DNA of 52,195 nucleotides. Source: Macrostomum lignano (taxonomy: Eukaryota). The notes beneath the pieces are model-generated. The model did not search any database. It was not told where the DNA came from and saw only the letters and a program-made list of their open reading frames with translations. The stretch covers positions 1 to 52,195 of the forward strand of contig NIVC01001766.1 in the NCBI GenBank assembly GCA_002269645.1. The letters are read 5' to 3'. Numbering within the stretch: the stretch's first letter is position 1; each line of letters opens with the position of its first letter. The position numbers were made by a program, and so were the translations under genes. Below, piece after piece: positions 11,509 through 44,351 of the stretch.

Positions 11509-11730
11509 TGTTGGCTTTTCAAACGCAGTAGTGTAGCTGATCGAGTATATTTCTTAGTCAACGAGCAAAAGGGGAAAGTTAAGAGAGGATGAAGCCAGAG
11601 GCTGATTTAATAGCTTTAGTTTTAGGCATAGACAAACTTATACAGTATCGTTCTAGAAAGTTCTAAGACTTGGGGAATCTAACGAGTTACTATAATTAGC
11701 ATAGATACAATTTACATTACTTTTTCAACA
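11509..11730 (-). repeat. copia 3' LTR
   Basis: Matches 15891-16112; preceded on the minus strand by the purine tract TAAGTGGGAG (11731-11740). Confidence 0.97.
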
Positions 11731-11827
11731 CTCCCACTTAATGAAAATTGTCTATCTATGCGGTTACAAAATTTGTCCAGTCTTCACAAAATTCTGATTA
11801 AGATGTCAGTAAATTCAAACTCCTCTG

Positions 11828-14800
11828 TTACATTTTAACAACTCCAAGCATTGTTCGCAGTTGCATGAACTTGTCCTTCGGTAACGGCTTAGTAAGCGCA
11901 TCTGCAACCATATCGCCAGTTGGACAGTAGACCACCCGAATAGTCCCATTGCTGACGGCTTCACGAATGAAGTGATGTCTGATATCAATGTGCTTTGTCC
12001 GTCGACTTCCAGCAGAATTCTCAGAAAGAGCAATGGTTCCTTGGTTGTCCTCGTAGATCACAGTGGGTCGCTCAGATCCTGATCTTTCAAGATCACTTAG
12101 TAGCCGCCGTAGCCACATGGCTTCTTGTGCTGCAGAGCTCAGCGCAACGTACTCAGCTTCCGTTGTCGAGAGTGAGACAGTTGATTGCTTCTTGCTAAGC
12201 CAGCTGATAGCGCCACCAGATAGCTTAAACACGATGCCAGAGGTGGAATGTCGATCATCTACGTCACTCGCCCAGTCTGCATCAGAATAGCCGATCAAGT
12301 TCTCTACACTAGAGTTGTACTCTAGGCCAAAGTCGATTGTTCCCTTTAGGTATCGGAAGATGCGTTTTACTGCGGTTAGATGTATCTCTCTTGGTTTGTT
12401 GTTGAACTTGGAGACAACTCCCACTGCATACGAGATGTCTGGACGTGTAGCAGTTGCTGCATAGAGCAAGCTTCCAACCATTGACTGGTAAACTGTAGAG
12501 TCAACTGGCTTGCTGCCCTCGTCGTATTTAGCTAGTTTTACGTTGGGATCCATCGGAGTTAAGGCTGGGTTCGCCTCTGCAAGTCCATAGCGTTCAAGCA
12601 GTTTGGTTATGTACTGCTTCTGATTAAGCTTGATACAGCGGTCCTCCTTGTTTGCTTGGATGTTGACACCTAGACAGTAGTGCAACTCGCCCATGTCTTT
12701 CATCTTGAACCTTTTGGAAAGTTCATCCTTGATTTGTTGCATTTCCACCAGACTCTTCGTAATTAGTATTAGGTCGTCAACGTACACAGCTAGGGCCGTG
12801 AGATCCTCCCTTTTCCTAATGAAGACACAACTGTCGGCTGAGCTTTCCTCGAAGTTAATTCTGGCTAGGTAGTCGCAAAAGGCTTTGTTCCAACAGCGGG
12901 GCGCTTGCTTAAGTCCATAAAGCGACTTCTTTAACTTGCAGACCAGCTCTTCCTCTCCTGGCTTGACGAAACCGGGTGGCTGCTCCATGTAAATTTCTTC
13001 GCACAATTCGCCGTTCAAAAAGGCAGTTACAACGTCCATCTGGTGAACGTGTAATCCATGTTTAGCCGCTAATGCCAACATTGCACGAACTGATGGGAAT
13101 TTTACAACTGGCGCGAAGGTCTCTTCATAATCAATGCCGAACTTCTGTGAATAGCCCTTGGCTACAAGTCTTCCCTTAAAACGATCTACCTTGCCATCAC
13201 CGTCATACTTGACCTTAAAGATCCATTTGCATCCGATTGCCTTGCGTCCTTCAGGTAGTCGTACGAGATCCCAGGTTTCATTCTCCATCAGGGAATTATA
13301 CTCTGAGTCAGCGGCAGCTTTCCATTGCTTCGCGTAGTCACCTTTCAGGGCTTCGTCGATCGTTTTCGGTTCGACAATTTCGGTCATTCTGAACGCAAAG
13401 TGTTCGGTTTCAGATGCCACTTTTGCACCTTCATATTTGAGACGGTCAGGGGCTCTCCTTTCACGTTGAGGATATCGCTTCTGATCAGTTTCTGTCGACT
13501 GTTCCTGTTCTTGACCTGGTGTCTCTTCTGTCATATTGGGCTCATCAAGTTCCAAGTTGAACCAGCTCGCGTCCTTGTCTCTTGCTCTATTCTTTGAGGT
13601 TCCAAAATCAGTCTCGTTGAACACCACATCGTAGCGGATGACTGTCTTTCTCAACCTTTCATCAAACAGTCTGTAGCTTCTTCCATCCGTATTGTAGCCA
13701 ACGAACCGTAGCTTTTCGGCCTTCTTGTCTAGCTTCTTTCGCTTCACATCTGGTATGTGGGCATAGGCTACGCAGCCGAAAACACGAAAGTGCCCAGCGT
13801 TAGGTTTGCGCCCATACCAACGCTGGTACGGCGTCATTTGCGGAGTAAGAGCAGTCGTCACGACTCTATTTCGCACATAAGCTGCGGTGTTTACTGCTTC
13901 TGCCCAGAACTGGTTGCTTACTCCAGCATGGGCCATCATTGTGCGGGCTGATTCAACGAGAGTGCGATTCATCCGTTCAGCAACGCCATTTTGCTGAGGT
14001 GTATGAGCCACGGTAGTCTCATGCCGAATGCCCTTCTGCTCCAGGAATTTTGTAAATTGGCTTGATGCATACTCTCCGCCGCCGTCAGTTCGCAGTGCTT
14101 TGATATTGAGTCCTGTTTCTGTTGTAACCATGGCCTCAAACTTCTTAAACTTATCAAGCACTTCTGACCTTTGTCGCATGAAGAAAACCTTAACGCAGCG
14201 TGAGTAGTCATCAATAAAGGTGACGAAGTACTTGTTTCCACCAAATGACTCTGTTTGCATAGGACCGCATATGTCGCTGTGAATTAGTTGTAGCCTTTCG
14301 GTAGAGCGGATTTCGGAAATCGACCTATGAGGCTTGCAGTGCATTTTGCCCTCGATACATCCTTCACAGAAGTCTACACATGCAGTCTGCAACTTGGGGA
14401 TGCCACTCACGAGTTGGTCTTTGCTCATTTGATTTAGCTGGTGTTCGTTGACATGACCAAGGCGCTGGTGCCATAAAGTTGCACTTGTGTCTGGTGAATC
14501 AGCATTTGCTACTGCCGCAGTGTTCGCCGGCAATTTTACTTCACAGTCAAGCTGGTACATTCTGTTAACAACAGATCCCTTTCCAACAAGGAGTCCATCC
14601 TTGTTGCGAATCCAGCATTTAGAGTGACCGAACTGTATCACTTTATCCTTTGCTGCTGCTGCTCGAACACTAAACAGATTGCACGACAGCTGAGGCACTA
14701 GAAGTACATCTGTTACAGCTGTCTTGAAACGCTTGTCATGTGGCAGGAGCATAATGAGTTTTACCTGACCACTGCCGCAGGCCTCGACTGTTCGACCATC

Positions 14801-15787
14801 ACCTAGGCTGACCCGTTCAGGTCGTCCAAACTGCTTATAGTTGACTAGTAGCTCTCTAGAGTATGTCATGTGGCAGGACGCTCCAGAGTCAATTATCCAG
14901 GTGGATATGTCAGAGCTGGTCTTCGCGGGCGACACAAAGAATGTCTCGTTGCAGCTACTTTTAGGTCCGTAGTCATCAAGCGAGGTTTCAGCGATGTCCC
15001 GGGTCGCGGCACCATCGGCTGTTTTGGCGACATACCGTGCAGGTCCTTGGTCCTTGACGAACTTTTTCGCTCCTCCTGAACGACAGTCTCGGGCAAAGTG
15101 ACCCATCTTTCCGCAATTAAAACATTTGATAGCACGACGTGGCAGACCTTGGCCTTTTTGGGTCTTCAGTGCAGACTCTCCACCCTGTGTACCACCAGAC
15201 CCTCGCTCACTTAATTCACTCCGCTTTTGCTCCTCGTTGATGAGTGCTTGGTGAACCATCTGCAGTGTAAGATCATCACCGCGAGCTTCCAAGGCAGTAA
15301 CCAAGGTAGAGTAGCTCTCAGGCAGGCTGCTGAGCAGCATGACCACTTGGTCCTCTTCACTGACGGGTGCGTTGATAGAGGCTAGTTTGTCGGTCAGCTC
15401 CTTCATATGGCGTATATGATCCTGTACGCGGGTCCCTTCACTCATCTGCAGCCGGAAAAGCTGTTTCTTCAAATAGATCTTATTCGCAGTTGATTCTCGT
15501 TCGAAGTGCTGTTGGAGAGCTTGCCACATACGATGTGGATCTTCGCCACACGAAGTTATTAGATAGATTAACTCTTTCTTGATTGAAAGAACGATCACTG
15601 CAGCAGCTCTCTGTTGCTGCTCTCGAAAATCGTTTTCTTGCTCCTGAGTGGCATCCTCTGCGAGAATTACAGAACCGTCGACGACTCCCCAGAGCTTCCT
15701 CGCTATAAGACAGAACTTGATCTGGATCTTCCAGGTAGTCCAGTTTCCGCTTCCCAGCTTGTCGACTTGAAACTTATCATCCGCCAT
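11828..15787 (-). CDS. copia Gag-Pol polyprotein, 1319 aa (Gag zinc knuckle, protease, integrase, RT, RNase H)
   Basis: CFNCGKMGHFARDC knuckle, WIIDSGASCHM protease, HQRLGH..CEGC plus DDE integrase placed before RT (QMDVVTAFLNG, YVDDL), RNase H (YSDADW, DNQG, ADALTK): copia domain order. Confidence 0.98.
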   Translation of the reverse strand: MADDKFQVDKLGSGNWTTWKIQIKFCLIARKLWGVVDGSVILAEDATQEQENDFREQQQRAAAVIVLSIKKELIYLITSCGEDPHRMWQALQQHFERESTANKIYLKKQLFRLQMSEGTRVQDHIRHMKELTDKLASINAPVSEEDQVVMLLSSLPESYSTLVTALEARGDDLTLQMVHQALINEEQKRSELSERGSGGTQGGESALKTQKGQGLPRRAIKCFNCGKMGHFARDCRSGGAKKFVKDQGPARYVAKTADGAATRDIAETSLDDYGPKSSCNETFFVSPAKTSSDISTWIIDSGASCHMTYSRELLVNYKQFGRPERVSLGDGRTVEACGSGQVKLIMLLPHDKRFKTAVTDVLLVPQLSCNLFSVRAAAAKDKVIQFGHSKCWIRNKDGLLVGKGSVVNRMYQLDCEVKLPANTAAVANADSPDTSATLWHQRLGHVNEHQLNQMSKDQLVSGIPKLQTACVDFCEGCIEGKMHCKPHRSISEIRSTERLQLIHSDICGPMQTESFGGNKYFVTFIDDYSRCVKVFFMRQRSEVLDKFKKFEAMVTTETGLNIKALRTDGGGEYASSQFTKFLEQKGIRHETTVAHTPQQNGVAERMNRTLVESARTMMAHAGVSNQFWAEAVNTAAYVRNRVVTTALTPQMTPYQRWYGRKPNAGHFRVFGCVAYAHIPDVKRKKLDKKAEKLRFVGYNTDGRSYRLFDERLRKTVIRYDVVFNETDFGTSKNRARDKDASWFNLELDEPNMTEETPGQEQEQSTETDQKRYPQRERRAPDRLKYEGAKVASETEHFAFRMTEIVEPKTIDEALKGDYAKQWKAAADSEYNSLMENETWDLVRLPEGRKAIGCKWIFKVKYDGDGKVDRFKGRLVAKGYSQKFGIDYEETFAPVVKFPSVRAMLALAAKHGLHVHQMDVVTAFLNGELCEEIYMEQPPGFVKPGEEELVCKLKKSLYGLKQAPRCWNKAFCDYLARINFEESSADSCVFIRKREDLTALAVYVDDLILITKSLVEMQQIKDELSKRFKMKDMGELHYCLGVNIQANKEDRCIKLNQKQYITKLLERYGLAEANPALTPMDPNVKLAKYDEGSKPVDSTVYQSMVGSLLYAATATRPDISYAVGVVSKFNNKPREIHLTAVKRIFRYLKGTIDFGLEYNSSVENLIGYSDADWASDVDDRHSTSGIVFKLSGGAISWLSKKQSTVSLSTTEAEYVALSSAAQEAMWLRRLLSDLERSGSERPTVIYEDNQGTIALSENSAGSRRTKHIDIRHHFIREAVSNGTIRVVYCPTGDMVADALTKPLPKDKFMQLRTMLGVVKM

Positions 15788-15876
15788 TTCTTCGGAAAGT
15801 TCGTGTCGAGAACAAGCCTATTTTCCGTCTGAGCGAGGCTTCTGGATCAGCACCACTTATGCGCAGTGGAAGCGTG

Positions 15877-15890
15877 CTGGGCCCATAACC
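15877..15890 (-). other. Primer-binding site GGTTATGGGCCCAG (half-tRNA-iMet type)
   Basis: Directly abuts the 5' LTR; same sequence as the classical Drosophila copia PBS. Confidence 0.9.
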
Positions 15891-16112
15891 TGTTGGCTTT
15901 TCAAACGCAGTAGTGTAGCTGATCGAGTATATTTCTTAGTCAACGAGCAAAAGGGGAAAGTTAAGAGAGGATGAAGCCAGAGGCTGATTTAATAGCTTTA
16001 GTTTTAGGCATAGACAAACTTATACAGTATCGTTCTAGAAAGTTCTAAGACTTGGGGAATCTAACGAGTTACTATAATTAGCATAGATACAATTTACATT
16101 ACTTTTTCAACA
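15891..16112 (-). repeat. copia 5' LTR
   Basis: 222 bp, TG...CA, followed on the minus strand by the PBS. Confidence 0.97.
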
Positions 16113-16117
16113 CTATG

Positions 16118-41979: not shown

Positions 41980-42303
41980 CAGTAGTATATAAAAAGACGC
42001 TTCTAGACCCAGAGCACTTTTTTAATGACCGTTTTAAGGGTCTAGAGGGGGGACACGGGGGGTAAATAAAAAAACACATCTAAACACCATTAATACATCT
42101 AATCACCCATAATCACCCCTAACAATAAAAATCATTCCCAACACTTCCAAACACTCCCCAACACCCCCTCGCGTCCCCCCTCTTAAGACCTTAAAAACGG
42201 CCATTAAAATAAGGTCTGATCTGTAAGCGTCTTTTTCTATACTACTACTCTATAACCCCTTGCCCGCGCCGCAGGCGCGAAGGGTCTTTTTCTGTTACTA
42301 AAA

Positions 42304-42618
42304 ATGACCCGAGTTTACACCTTTTCTGTTAGTGATACTTTTGAGACTGTTGCTAAAAATGCAGAGATAATAAAACAACATATTTTGAATGGAATAATTG
42401 ATGAAGTTTATTTAAAATATGACGACAAGCATGACCTAAAGCTTTATCCATTAGAGCTAGATGAGATGTATGATTTAGAACAAGAGGGTGAGTTAATATT
42501 TCAACTTGGAGATTATTTAAATTCGGATGATTGGGAGGTTAGATCAACAGATTCCGAATCAACAAATAGTTCATATGAAACCAGTGATTCAGAGAATGAA
42601 AGTGAAATTTTTATGTGA
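42304..42618 (+). CDS. Viral hypothetical acidic protein, 104 aa
   Basis: AAAAATG start context shared with other viral genes; no recognisable domain. Confidence 0.6.
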   Translation: MTRVYTFSVSDTFETVAKNAEIIKQHILNGIIDEVYLKYDDKHDLKLYPLELDEMYDLEQEGELIFQLGDYLNSDDWEVRSTDSESTNSSYETSDSENESEIFM

Positions 42619-42634
42619 AAAAAATATTTAAAAA

Positions 42635-42859
42635 ATGAACTATTATTCTATAACAGAAACGACGTTTATTATGAAAAATATATATAAAAAAATGAAGGTA
42701 AATTATTCCTACATCGGAAATGTTCCAATTAATGAACTTAATGAAAATTTAAGTTTGATAACAGTTGAACAAATGTCAATAATAATATTAGTAACAATAA
42801 TAGTAATAATATTGTTTTTGTTTGTAATAAAAAATTTACTACCATGTTGTCTTAAGTAA
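42635..42859 (+). CDS. Viral small membrane protein, 74 aa
   Basis: Hydrophobic helix IIILVTIIVIILFLFVI followed by KNLLPCCLK; AAAAAATG context. The true start may be a later Met. Confidence 0.55.
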   Translation: MNYYSITETTFIMKNIYKKMKVNYSYIGNVPINELNENLSLITVEQMSIIILVTIIVIILFLFVIKNLLPCCLK

Positions 42860-42869
42860 CTGTTTGAAC

Positions 42870-44018
42870 TTAGTTCGCAGACATTATCTGGTTCTCATAA
42901 AAAGAACCCAATATTTCTTCACCATCCTTATCAGCAATTATATAGGTTGTAGGATTTGTATTTAAAACTTTACTGATGGTAAATTTCTCACTTATTTTCC
43001 AATATCCTTTTCTTCCCTTTTCAAACTTATCTTTCCATTTATAGATATAAACAGAATCACCAACCTTAAAACCTTTAGTTTTCTTTTTTTCAAAATCTCC
43101 AAAAGTAACCCTAACATTTTCAGGATTGTTATAAGCTTGTTGAGGAGTCATCTTTATCGCCGAATGATATGAATTGTTATAATCTTTCACTACGTCTGGT
43201 AATATTTTTACCCATTTTTGGTTACCATTAAGACTAAACTGAAACCATAATTTCTTACCTAAAGTTCTATTAAATCTTTCTATTAATGCGTTTTTACTCT
43301 CTCCATAAATAGAATAAATTTTATTAATATACTCCCCATTCGCGTCCTTTTTCCTTTCTTGTCCTTTTTCAAAATGATACAATTTATACATGTGAGGATT
43401 GTAAAATTCTTTTCCTTCGTCAACACACAACCTTTCACTTTTTTCTCCAAGACTTCTAAAAGCAGCAGCAACCTCCTCTCCCTTTTTGGATTTTAAAGGA
43501 ACAGCCCACGCGTATCGAGTAAAACCATCTAATATGGTTAAGATATATTTATATCCTCTTTCGTTCGGCATCGACATTAAATCAGCATACCAAATTTCAT
43601 TCTTTTTGAAGTTCATGATTTTTCTATAAAATTTAGGTTTTCGATATTCTTTATGAAGAATCTTTGCCTCATCAGAACTTAACCCGCCGCCACTTAACAA
43701 CAAACACTCAACACAATTATTTCCATGTTGATTATAATTAATTCCCAAACCAAATTTAACTTTAGACTGCAAGATCTTTTTAACCATCCACCTAGTTAAT
43801 TTTTGACCTACCGATAATCCCTGCAAGTTATCTAATCCTTGAATCATTTTTTGATCGGCTTCATGTTTTAATCTTAATGCTTCCTCGGGTGTGTTCTTAT
43901 CAGCATCTCTGTATGCTAAGTCATGATAGTATGCTAACCAATCAATTCCATTTATGGGAATTGAATCGGCTTTTGGGGTGTCATCAGGATTTAATCTCAA
44001 ATCTAAGCGAGTGCCGGG
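42870..44018 (-). CDS. PLA2-integrase fusion protein, exon 2 (PLA2 catalytic region and rve DDE integrase)
   Basis: PGTRL...DWLAYYHDLAY (parvovirus-type PLA2 HD motif), then WYADL, LCVDEGKEF, IERFNRTL, YNNSYHSAIKMTP, FKVGDSV: Polinton-type integrase. Confidence 0.92.
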   Translation of the reverse strand, partial: PGTRLDLRLNPDDTPKADSIPINGIDWLAYYHDLAYRDADKNTPEEALRLKHEADQKMIQGLDNLQGLSVGQKLTRWMVKKILQSKVKFGLGINYNQHGNNCVECLLLSGGGLSSDEAKILHKEYRKPKFYRKIMNFKKNEIWYADLMSMPNERGYKYILTILDGFTRYAWAVPLKSKKGEEVAAAFRSLGEKSERLCVDEGKEFYNPHMYKLYHFEKGQERKKDANGEYINKIYSIYGESKNALIERFNRTLGKKLWFQFSLNGNQKWVKILPDVVKDYNNSYHSAIKMTPQQAYNNPENVRVTFGDFEKKKTKGFKVGDSVYIYKWKDKFEKGRKGYWKISEKFTISKVLNTNPTTYIIADKDGEEILGSFYENQIMSAN

Positions 44019-44351
44019 TAGTTTACCCTCAATCTTTCGAAAGAGGCTGGAGCACACCTTAAGCGGCGATAATTACCGCCCATCTCCGTCTGCTCTCTGA
44101 ACCTTCTCCTTATATTTAAAATACTTAGGAGCTTGGCTGCGCATTGCCACCGTGTCTTCAAGCTTTTTACCATCGAACCATAGGTTCGCGGACGAAGTCC
44201 GATTGGGAAGAGGAGTTACCTCTGTTCCTTCAAAAGATTTCTCAATTGAAGTGGTACTTGAAGCTGTATGACGGGTTTCACGCAATTTGGAGATGTCGCC
44301 ACAAATAGTGACTAGCAAGGACATTGCCTTCCTCACTCAGGCCACGGGTTA
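44019..44351 (-). ncRNA. Group I intron, subgroup IC1-like, 333 nt, no internal ORF
   Basis: P AAAUUGCGUGAAA (44276-44288), Q AAUGCGCAGCCAAG (44132-44145), R GGUUCAGAGAGCA (44091-44103), S UUAAGGUGUGCUCC (44049-44062). P3 CAUCUCC/GGAGAUG, P7 GAGCA/UGCUC, P1 with U.G wobble and P5abc all pair by hand. Removal restores NFTG|PGTRL in frame. Confidence 0.9.

Follow-up and report, generated by a model that had tools for sequence, protein, structure and literature searches.

A group I intron that ends naturally in A (omega-A) is described from hexacoral mitochondria, where the obligatory ND5-717 intron leaves correctly ligated exons and where the authors, in the available passages of their reports, propose that the terminal A suppresses 3′ splice site hydrolysis and circularisation (PMC8146996, PMC6545197). 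The intron analysed here, which lies in a 52,195-nt stretch of DNA (the window), resembles ND5-717 in joining a terminal A to a protein-coding gene and an animal host, although the ND5-717 exons are ligated in vivo whereas splicing in the window is only predicted. According to the same passages, ND5-717 is mitochondrial and obligatory, with a compact core and genes inserted in P8 (PMC8146996, PMC6545197). In contrast, the window intron interrupts a nuclear-integrated viral gene, is optional and patchily distributed, measures 333 nt with a P5abc extension and has family members ending in omega-G, so that the two are set apart by description.

A second precedent, Cbu.L1917 from the 23S rRNA of Coxiella burnetii, reportedly has a terminal A and splices more slowly, and is said to carry its own homing endonuclease in a bacterial rRNA gene. 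The window intron sits instead in a protein gene, and it is likened to Cbu.L1917 by description, not by sequence. The available part of the Coxiella report presents Cbu.L1917 as a self-splicing group I intron (PMC4990558). The original prediction regarded omega-G as nearly universal, with a rare omega-A case in Coxiella; this exception is not the only one, as hexacoral ND5-717 shares it, and omega-A itself is not unprecedented, being commoner and less novel than had been implied. A search of the literature for further natural omega-A introns gave nothing useful, and an IStron paper (PMC4227781) deals with the 5′ site.

Regarding the host, protist Polinton-like viruses have RF00028 introns of 309–376 nt in a protein gene; in the accessible text these are confined to Rhodomonas, Paulinella and Desmodesmus and to a short gene that precedes the capsid gene, and that text is silent on the terminal base (PMC12220804); the window has an animal element and a PLA2 motif. 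Nuclear rDNA IC1 introns of the Tetrahymena type, as outlined in the consulted sections of a 2013 review (PMC3679873), share with the window intron a P5abc with an A-rich bulge, GAAA loops and 3′ site selection by P9.0 and P10, but the latter differs from them in its lack of P9.1/P9.2, its non-consensus P7 and its terminal A. In those sections nuclear group I introns are confined to the rRNA genes of eukaryotic microbes (PMC3679873), and excerpts of a 2024 review describe them as absent from most metazoans (PMC10964413). The PLA2X genes of adintoviruses likewise place a parvovirus-like PLA2 domain in the virion module of an animal Polinton, but in the part of that report consulted they differ from the window gene, in which PLA2 is fused to an integrase and split by a ribozyme; the sole use of the word intron there concerns another element (PMC8502044). 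The available texts of PMC8502044, 10.1101/2023.08.22.554363, PMC11296320, PMC3984707 and 10.64898/2026.10.13.758929, the supplements of which could hold such annotations, do not mention an intron in the PLA2 gene of an animal Polinton, and searches of open-access literature turned up no description of a family of introns that interrupt this motif in Polintons of animals.

The intron and the gene that it interrupts

A focused Rfam scan matched RF00028 at 44361..44028 on the minus strand (61.1 bits, gathering threshold 50; E 6e-15), a match that scans of the whole window and of 9 kb had overlooked through their filters (Table 1). Further introns in the Polinton element were not detected in the Rfam scans, of which the 9-kb one had overlooked the known intron too. 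The first codon of the intron is an in-frame stop, and the ORF list holds no homing endonuclease ORF inside its 333 nt. Exon 1 is 69% identical to the intron-less protein P0001 and aligns with intron-less relatives up to the end of their Asn-Phe-Thr-Gly stretch. Exon 2 matches PF08398 (E 0.008) and PF00665 (E 1.6e-7) and retains the His-Asp and DDE motifs, which we take to be the functional motifs of PLA2 and integrase; the same fusion is present in many homologue matches. Given the stop at the head of the intron, splicing is required for a complete PLA2 and, from the exon 1 start codon, for the integrase fused to it. The neighbouring Eco47II-like nuclease is a candidate helper of intron homing.

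Table 1. Coordinates of the intron, its host gene and other features of the window.
Feature	Position	Strand	Evidence
copia LTR retrotransposon, intact 1,319-aa ORF, identical 224-nt terminal repeats	11509-16114		Pfam, repeats
Polinton/adintovirus-type element, left end about 41982, runs off window	41982..52195	.	Pfam, terminus, gene matches
Exon 2: remaining parvovirus-like PLA2 domain and rve integrase fusion, open frame	42870..44018	-	Pfam, homologues
Terminal intron nucleotide (omega), A	44019..44019	-	Sequence, P9.0+P10 score, homologue junction
Group I intron, 333 nt, phase 0	44019..44351	-	RF00028, ORF list, splice-border tests
Second tail difference: A (Lys codon) where 7/7 related tails imply G (Glu codon)	44024	-	Tail comparison
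P9 hairpin, GAAA loop, two U.U mismatches, contains in-frame G44028	44027..44046	-	Sequence, Rfam alignment
P9.0 5′ side (A44048, G44047), pairs with U44020 and C44021	44047..44048	-	Sequence, P9.0+P10 scoring
P7 3′ strand, including C44050 of the G-binding pair	44049..44054	-	Rfam alignment, tail peptides
P7 5′ strand, including G44095 of the guanosine-binding G-C pair	44091..44097	-	Sequence reading, Rfam alignment
P5abc extension, A-rich bulge 44167-44163, GAAA-capped P5b	44156..44263	-	Sequence reading; helices in fold
P1: 5′ exon end and internal guide sequence, U44352.G44342	44331..44361	-	Sequence reading, Rfam alignment
P10 guide	44343-44348	-	P10 score
Exon 1, 42 codons, last is the Gly codon whose U forms the U.G splice-site pair	44352..44477	-	ORF list, alignment
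Free-standing Eco47II-like nuclease gene, overlaps exon 1 start	44458..44961	-	PF09553 E 4e-4; ESM Atlas 0.94
Adenain-like protease gene, frame break near 49310	48991-49418	+	Atlas match
Fibre/lectin-like gene, frame break near 50915, 57-nt tandem repeat, F5/8 domain	49429-51119	+	Pfam, repeats
94-aa ORF, Cys-rich, no Pfam match	51160-51444	+	ORF list

In the sequence and the Rfam alignment, the U.G pair at the 5′ splice site is followed by four Watson-Crick pairs in P1, and the core shows 7/7 pairs in P3, 6/6 in P7, a canonical guanosine-binding pair G44095-C44050 and a bulged A44096. Core helices P3, P7 and P8 are fully paired in both the Rfam alignment and the fold, two lower P7 pairs departing from the Rfam consensus through compensatory changes, and the region folds better than 100/100 shuffles (z −2.5). 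A P5abc with an A-rich bulge is a hallmark of IC-type introns, and on this feature the intron is assigned to subgroup IC (IC1-like), Rfam having one general model. As far as can be judged from sequence, it is a genuine IC-type group I ribozyme that splits the PLA2 motif in the PLA2-integrase gene of a Polinton, and it is predicted to self-splice.

Several side observations were made on the intron. Across P7 and J8/7 (44049-44058 and 44091-44097, minus strand), the compensatory departures from the Rfam consensus lie in layers below the G pocket. A small GC-rich palindromic hairpin is common to the P5abc of the intron (44188-44200) and to an intergenic part of the element (51449-51461). The repeats listed for the window (the largest 20 of 30 families) include no second intron copy. 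Blastn searches with the intron as query, covering phages and plasmids, returned only 50-nt core matches (E about 0.3). An unannotated group I intron, probably with an ORF in P8, was seen after the DNA polymerase gene of Flavobacterium phage FpV21 (L004, 659-819); its 3′ end falls outside the stretch examined, so that it provides no omega control.

Terminal nucleotide and 3′ splice site

On the minus strand, A44019 is preceded by C44021 and U44020 and followed, from 44018, by Pro-Gly-Thr codons. We scored candidate 3′ sites by P9.0 (A44048, G44047) plus P10 (44343-44348), the maximum being 8. Position 44019 came first among 34 candidate terminal positions with 6 of 8 (P9.0 2/2, P10 4/6), a score of at least 6 at a preset site being obtained in 0.44% of random draws; the runner-up, G44014, scored 5 and is out of frame. 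Among 267 homologous proteins examined, 207 fit the motif pattern and 60 did not, and Gly stood immediately before Pro-x-Thr in 189 of the 207. Protein homology, P9.0 and P10 thus converge, confirming 44019 as the last intron base, and this base is A. The prediction that the intron ends in A and not in omega-G was therefore correct, as was its argument that the junction restoring Gly-Pro-Gly-Thr and the one indicated by P9.0 are the same site. The nearly universal terminal G is missing here, and in view of the published omega-A exceptions A44019 leaves the intron within the group I class.

A different 3′ site had been named as one of the findings that would overturn this assignment. The nearest upstream in-frame G, G44028, scores 1 of 8 and lies inside the P9 stem; as had been anticipated, its use would insert three residues, and exon 1 followed by a three-residue insert was found in 0 of the other 18 motif-bearing homologues. 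No combination of a U at the 5′ site and a G at the 3′ site kept both exons intact in the ranges tested, and two length-neutral U/G pairs read from the sequence would replace the conserved Thr-Gly, without a proper P1.

Because the pocket pair is canonical, the first step would be expected to be ordinary, with exogenous guanosine bound at G44095-C44050 and cleavage after U44352. In the second step, P9.0 and P10 would chiefly guide the reaction, both choosing 44019/44018, with A occupying the pocket instead of G; accuracy would be kept while the rate would probably be lowered. Results from Coxiella and Anabaena, which reportedly show an accurate but slower second step, are the basis of this proposal. 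According to consulted excerpts, P9.0 and P10 contribute to the definition of the 3′ site (PMC6155759) and increase the affinity for the substrate (PMC2588497).

Intron tails in related proteins

Where gene callers begin the exon-2 frame inside the intron, the end of the intron becomes visible as a protein N-terminus. Seven proteins carry such tails at the same site (P0002, P0017, P0174, P0192, P0251, P0252 and P0253). P0002 and P0017 share 11/12 residues after the start codon with the tail of the window, and over the last 8 codons they imply 1/24 base change from it, a closeness reached by 0/23,230 background 8-mers. The remaining tails, those of P0174, P0251, P0192, P0253 and P0252 (4 residues), come from a distant PLA2 clade. 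Here three independent peptides each have a possible coding sequence that folds into a perfect GAAA hairpin of 8 pairs where P9 lies (background 11/1,400), and four proteins have an S-element peptide pattern, written post hoc, that is restricted to them among 71,542 residues. On these grounds the distant-clade tails are group I tails as well. The 3′ strand of the non-consensus P7 in the window is compatible with the peptides of its closest sisters, P0002 and P0017, and not with the omega-G subfamily, which is compatible with the consensus P7 instead.

The last base can be read in two of the seven clear tails and is G in both: P0174 and P0251 (cluster of 14), both of a single distant subfamily, have as last tail residue an internal Met, encoded by ATG. 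The other five, including the closest P0002 and P0017, end in a Leu codon, in which A and G are indistinguishable. An Ile-ending tail, which could indicate A, did not occur among the 267 proteins, and a search for omega in sisters through a 56-aa frame with omega in mid-codon gave no candidate among proteins of 30-98 aa. Six more proteins with Met before Pro (P0198 and five Met-Pro starters) are tentative omega-G cases; we rejected them as firm ones, as a deletion between repeated Pro-Gly codons could produce an identical start and the P0198 tail is too short for P9. Since the same-site relatives include omega-G members, the A is most likely derived, having arisen from G within this family.

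In a tree obtained by a quick method, with 8/46 rows filling less than half of the columns, intron-bearing and intron-less genes interleave, the window grouping with P0001 and P0002/P0017 with P0004, both partners being intron-less (support 98-99). The intron tail is also much more conserved than exon 2 (about 61% identity), and interleaving and conservation together suggest homing or repeated loss. Whatever A44019 proves to be, the tails reveal that animal Polintons harbour a family of group I introns in their PLA2 motif. The family occurs in no fewer than two distant clades, with a patchy distribution, and with a nuclease gene alongside it merits as much interest as A44019 itself. The intron DNA pattern had 0 matches in bacterial and archaeal genomes, and a protein-guided scan recovered 3 Polinton-like loci among 56 candidate stretches, with the PLA2 motif uninterrupted in 3/3 and no group I match. 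These loci (L001, L002 and L003) are Polinton-type contigs in prokaryotic MAGs, probably through binning contamination, in which PLA2 and integrase are separate ORFs.

Origin of the terminal A and surroundings of the intron

The original prediction offered a natural omega-A, an inactivating change or a base-call error as the cause of the terminal A. All three stand, but the A need not inactivate the intron, because ND5-717 with omega-A gives correctly ligated exons. We give close to an even chance to inheritance, in which the A would already have been present in the replicating element and the intron would still splice. Compatibility of the closest sisters with the non-consensus P7, and the published precedent of ND5-717, which is naturally omega-A, is spliced and lies in a protein gene, argue for it. 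Against it stand the G in all readable related tails and the endogenous state of a copy with two frame breaks, and the difference at 44024, 5 nt upstream, could be a clustered private mutation.

The amount of decay bears on this choice. With no nonsense codon over 7,551 nt of coding sequence, neutral decay d would be below 0.85% (95%), and if substitution:indel ratios of 5-12 are assumed, the two frame breaks place it at roughly 0.1-0.4%. This leaves a random G-to-A at 44019 a chance of roughly 0.04-0.2% and no more than about 0.4%. Among five clade members the exon-2 protein shows the smallest number of private changes, 4/130 otherwise shared columns versus 5, 11, 11 and 10. Its 90th rank by deviations from columns conserved in 92 homologues was considered as a sign of host-gene decay and discarded: the clade mates deviate as much (11/78 versus 9/78, 9/61 and 7/59), so that the rank reflects clade divergence. 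Natural omega-A is put, by estimate only, at between a few tenths of a percent and 1% of intron families. The chance of a random hit on 44019 and this rarity are of the same order, inheritance keeping a slight edge.

A private substitution is a serious competitor. Here the active element would have ended in G, as intron family members do, and the genomic copy would have mutated after insertion, with the second step slowed or blocked; A44019 would then be an ordinary mutation in an endogenous copy. The frame breaks fall in virion genes and at least one of them is unexplained by a long homopolymer (longest runs nearby 4 and 3), and 44019 and 44024 are both G-to-A-type differences in TpG context on the same strand. 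Such a substitution is opposed by the slight decay with its low chance for this exact base, by the host gene being free of excess private changes, and by the element having no CpG depletion (O/E 0.96) and 44019 not being a CpG. A base-call or assembly error at 44019 is improbable, the least likely of the three causes. This is one unreplicated sequence, and assembly indels could account for part of its two frame breaks, but 44019 lies outside any homopolymer, and the resolved long tandem arrays and the lack of N in the window point to a modern assembly, in which the substitution error should be well below the rates of the rival causes. Splicing at a nearby G (in-frame G44028 or another 5′/3′ pair) is more improbable still, for although the pocket pair is G-specific and in-frame G sites are present, omega-G relatives terminate at the homologous position, and the sites considered above fare poorly in pairing and homology.

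An inherited omega-A would be a compact, protein-gene, nuclear-context addition to the very short list of natural omega-A ribozymes. Its same-site omega-G relatives would offer a comparison for how far P9.0 and P10 replace omega-G, and the selection of A to suppress 3′ hydrolysis and circles, as proposed for ND5-717, would become testable. A more elaborate scenario, which we consider rather unlikely, is that a mobile omega-A subfamily with a remodelled P7 has moved among the Polinton lineages of animals, where it gates the expression of PLA2-integrase in the host nucleus and homes via the adjacent nuclease, while sister subfamilies at the same site kept omega-G. If true, it would supply a natural paired series for a group I intron giving up its terminal G.

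The element that carries the intron begins with an AG-rich terminus at about 41982, the first part of which (41982-42004) has a short inverted copy about 250 nt inside, at 42228-42250. PolB and the second terminus are absent from the window, off the right end of which the element runs. Besides the rve integrase, its genes include an A32/FtsK packaging ATPase (both by Pfam), a penton-like gene matching L001 and L002 and an adenain-like protease, the pieces of which are recognised by the Atlas match and not by Pfam, PHROGs or PDB; a 490-aa product would be the capsid, to judge from size and position. The 94-aa ORF presumably begins with a GIY-YIG-like motif, and stop-rich sequence lies to its right. 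Elsewhere the window holds an anion-type Cys-loop receptor exon, whose best match is a glycine receptor (E 3e-37), and a copia retrotransposon whose insertion is recent, as its terminal repeats are identical.
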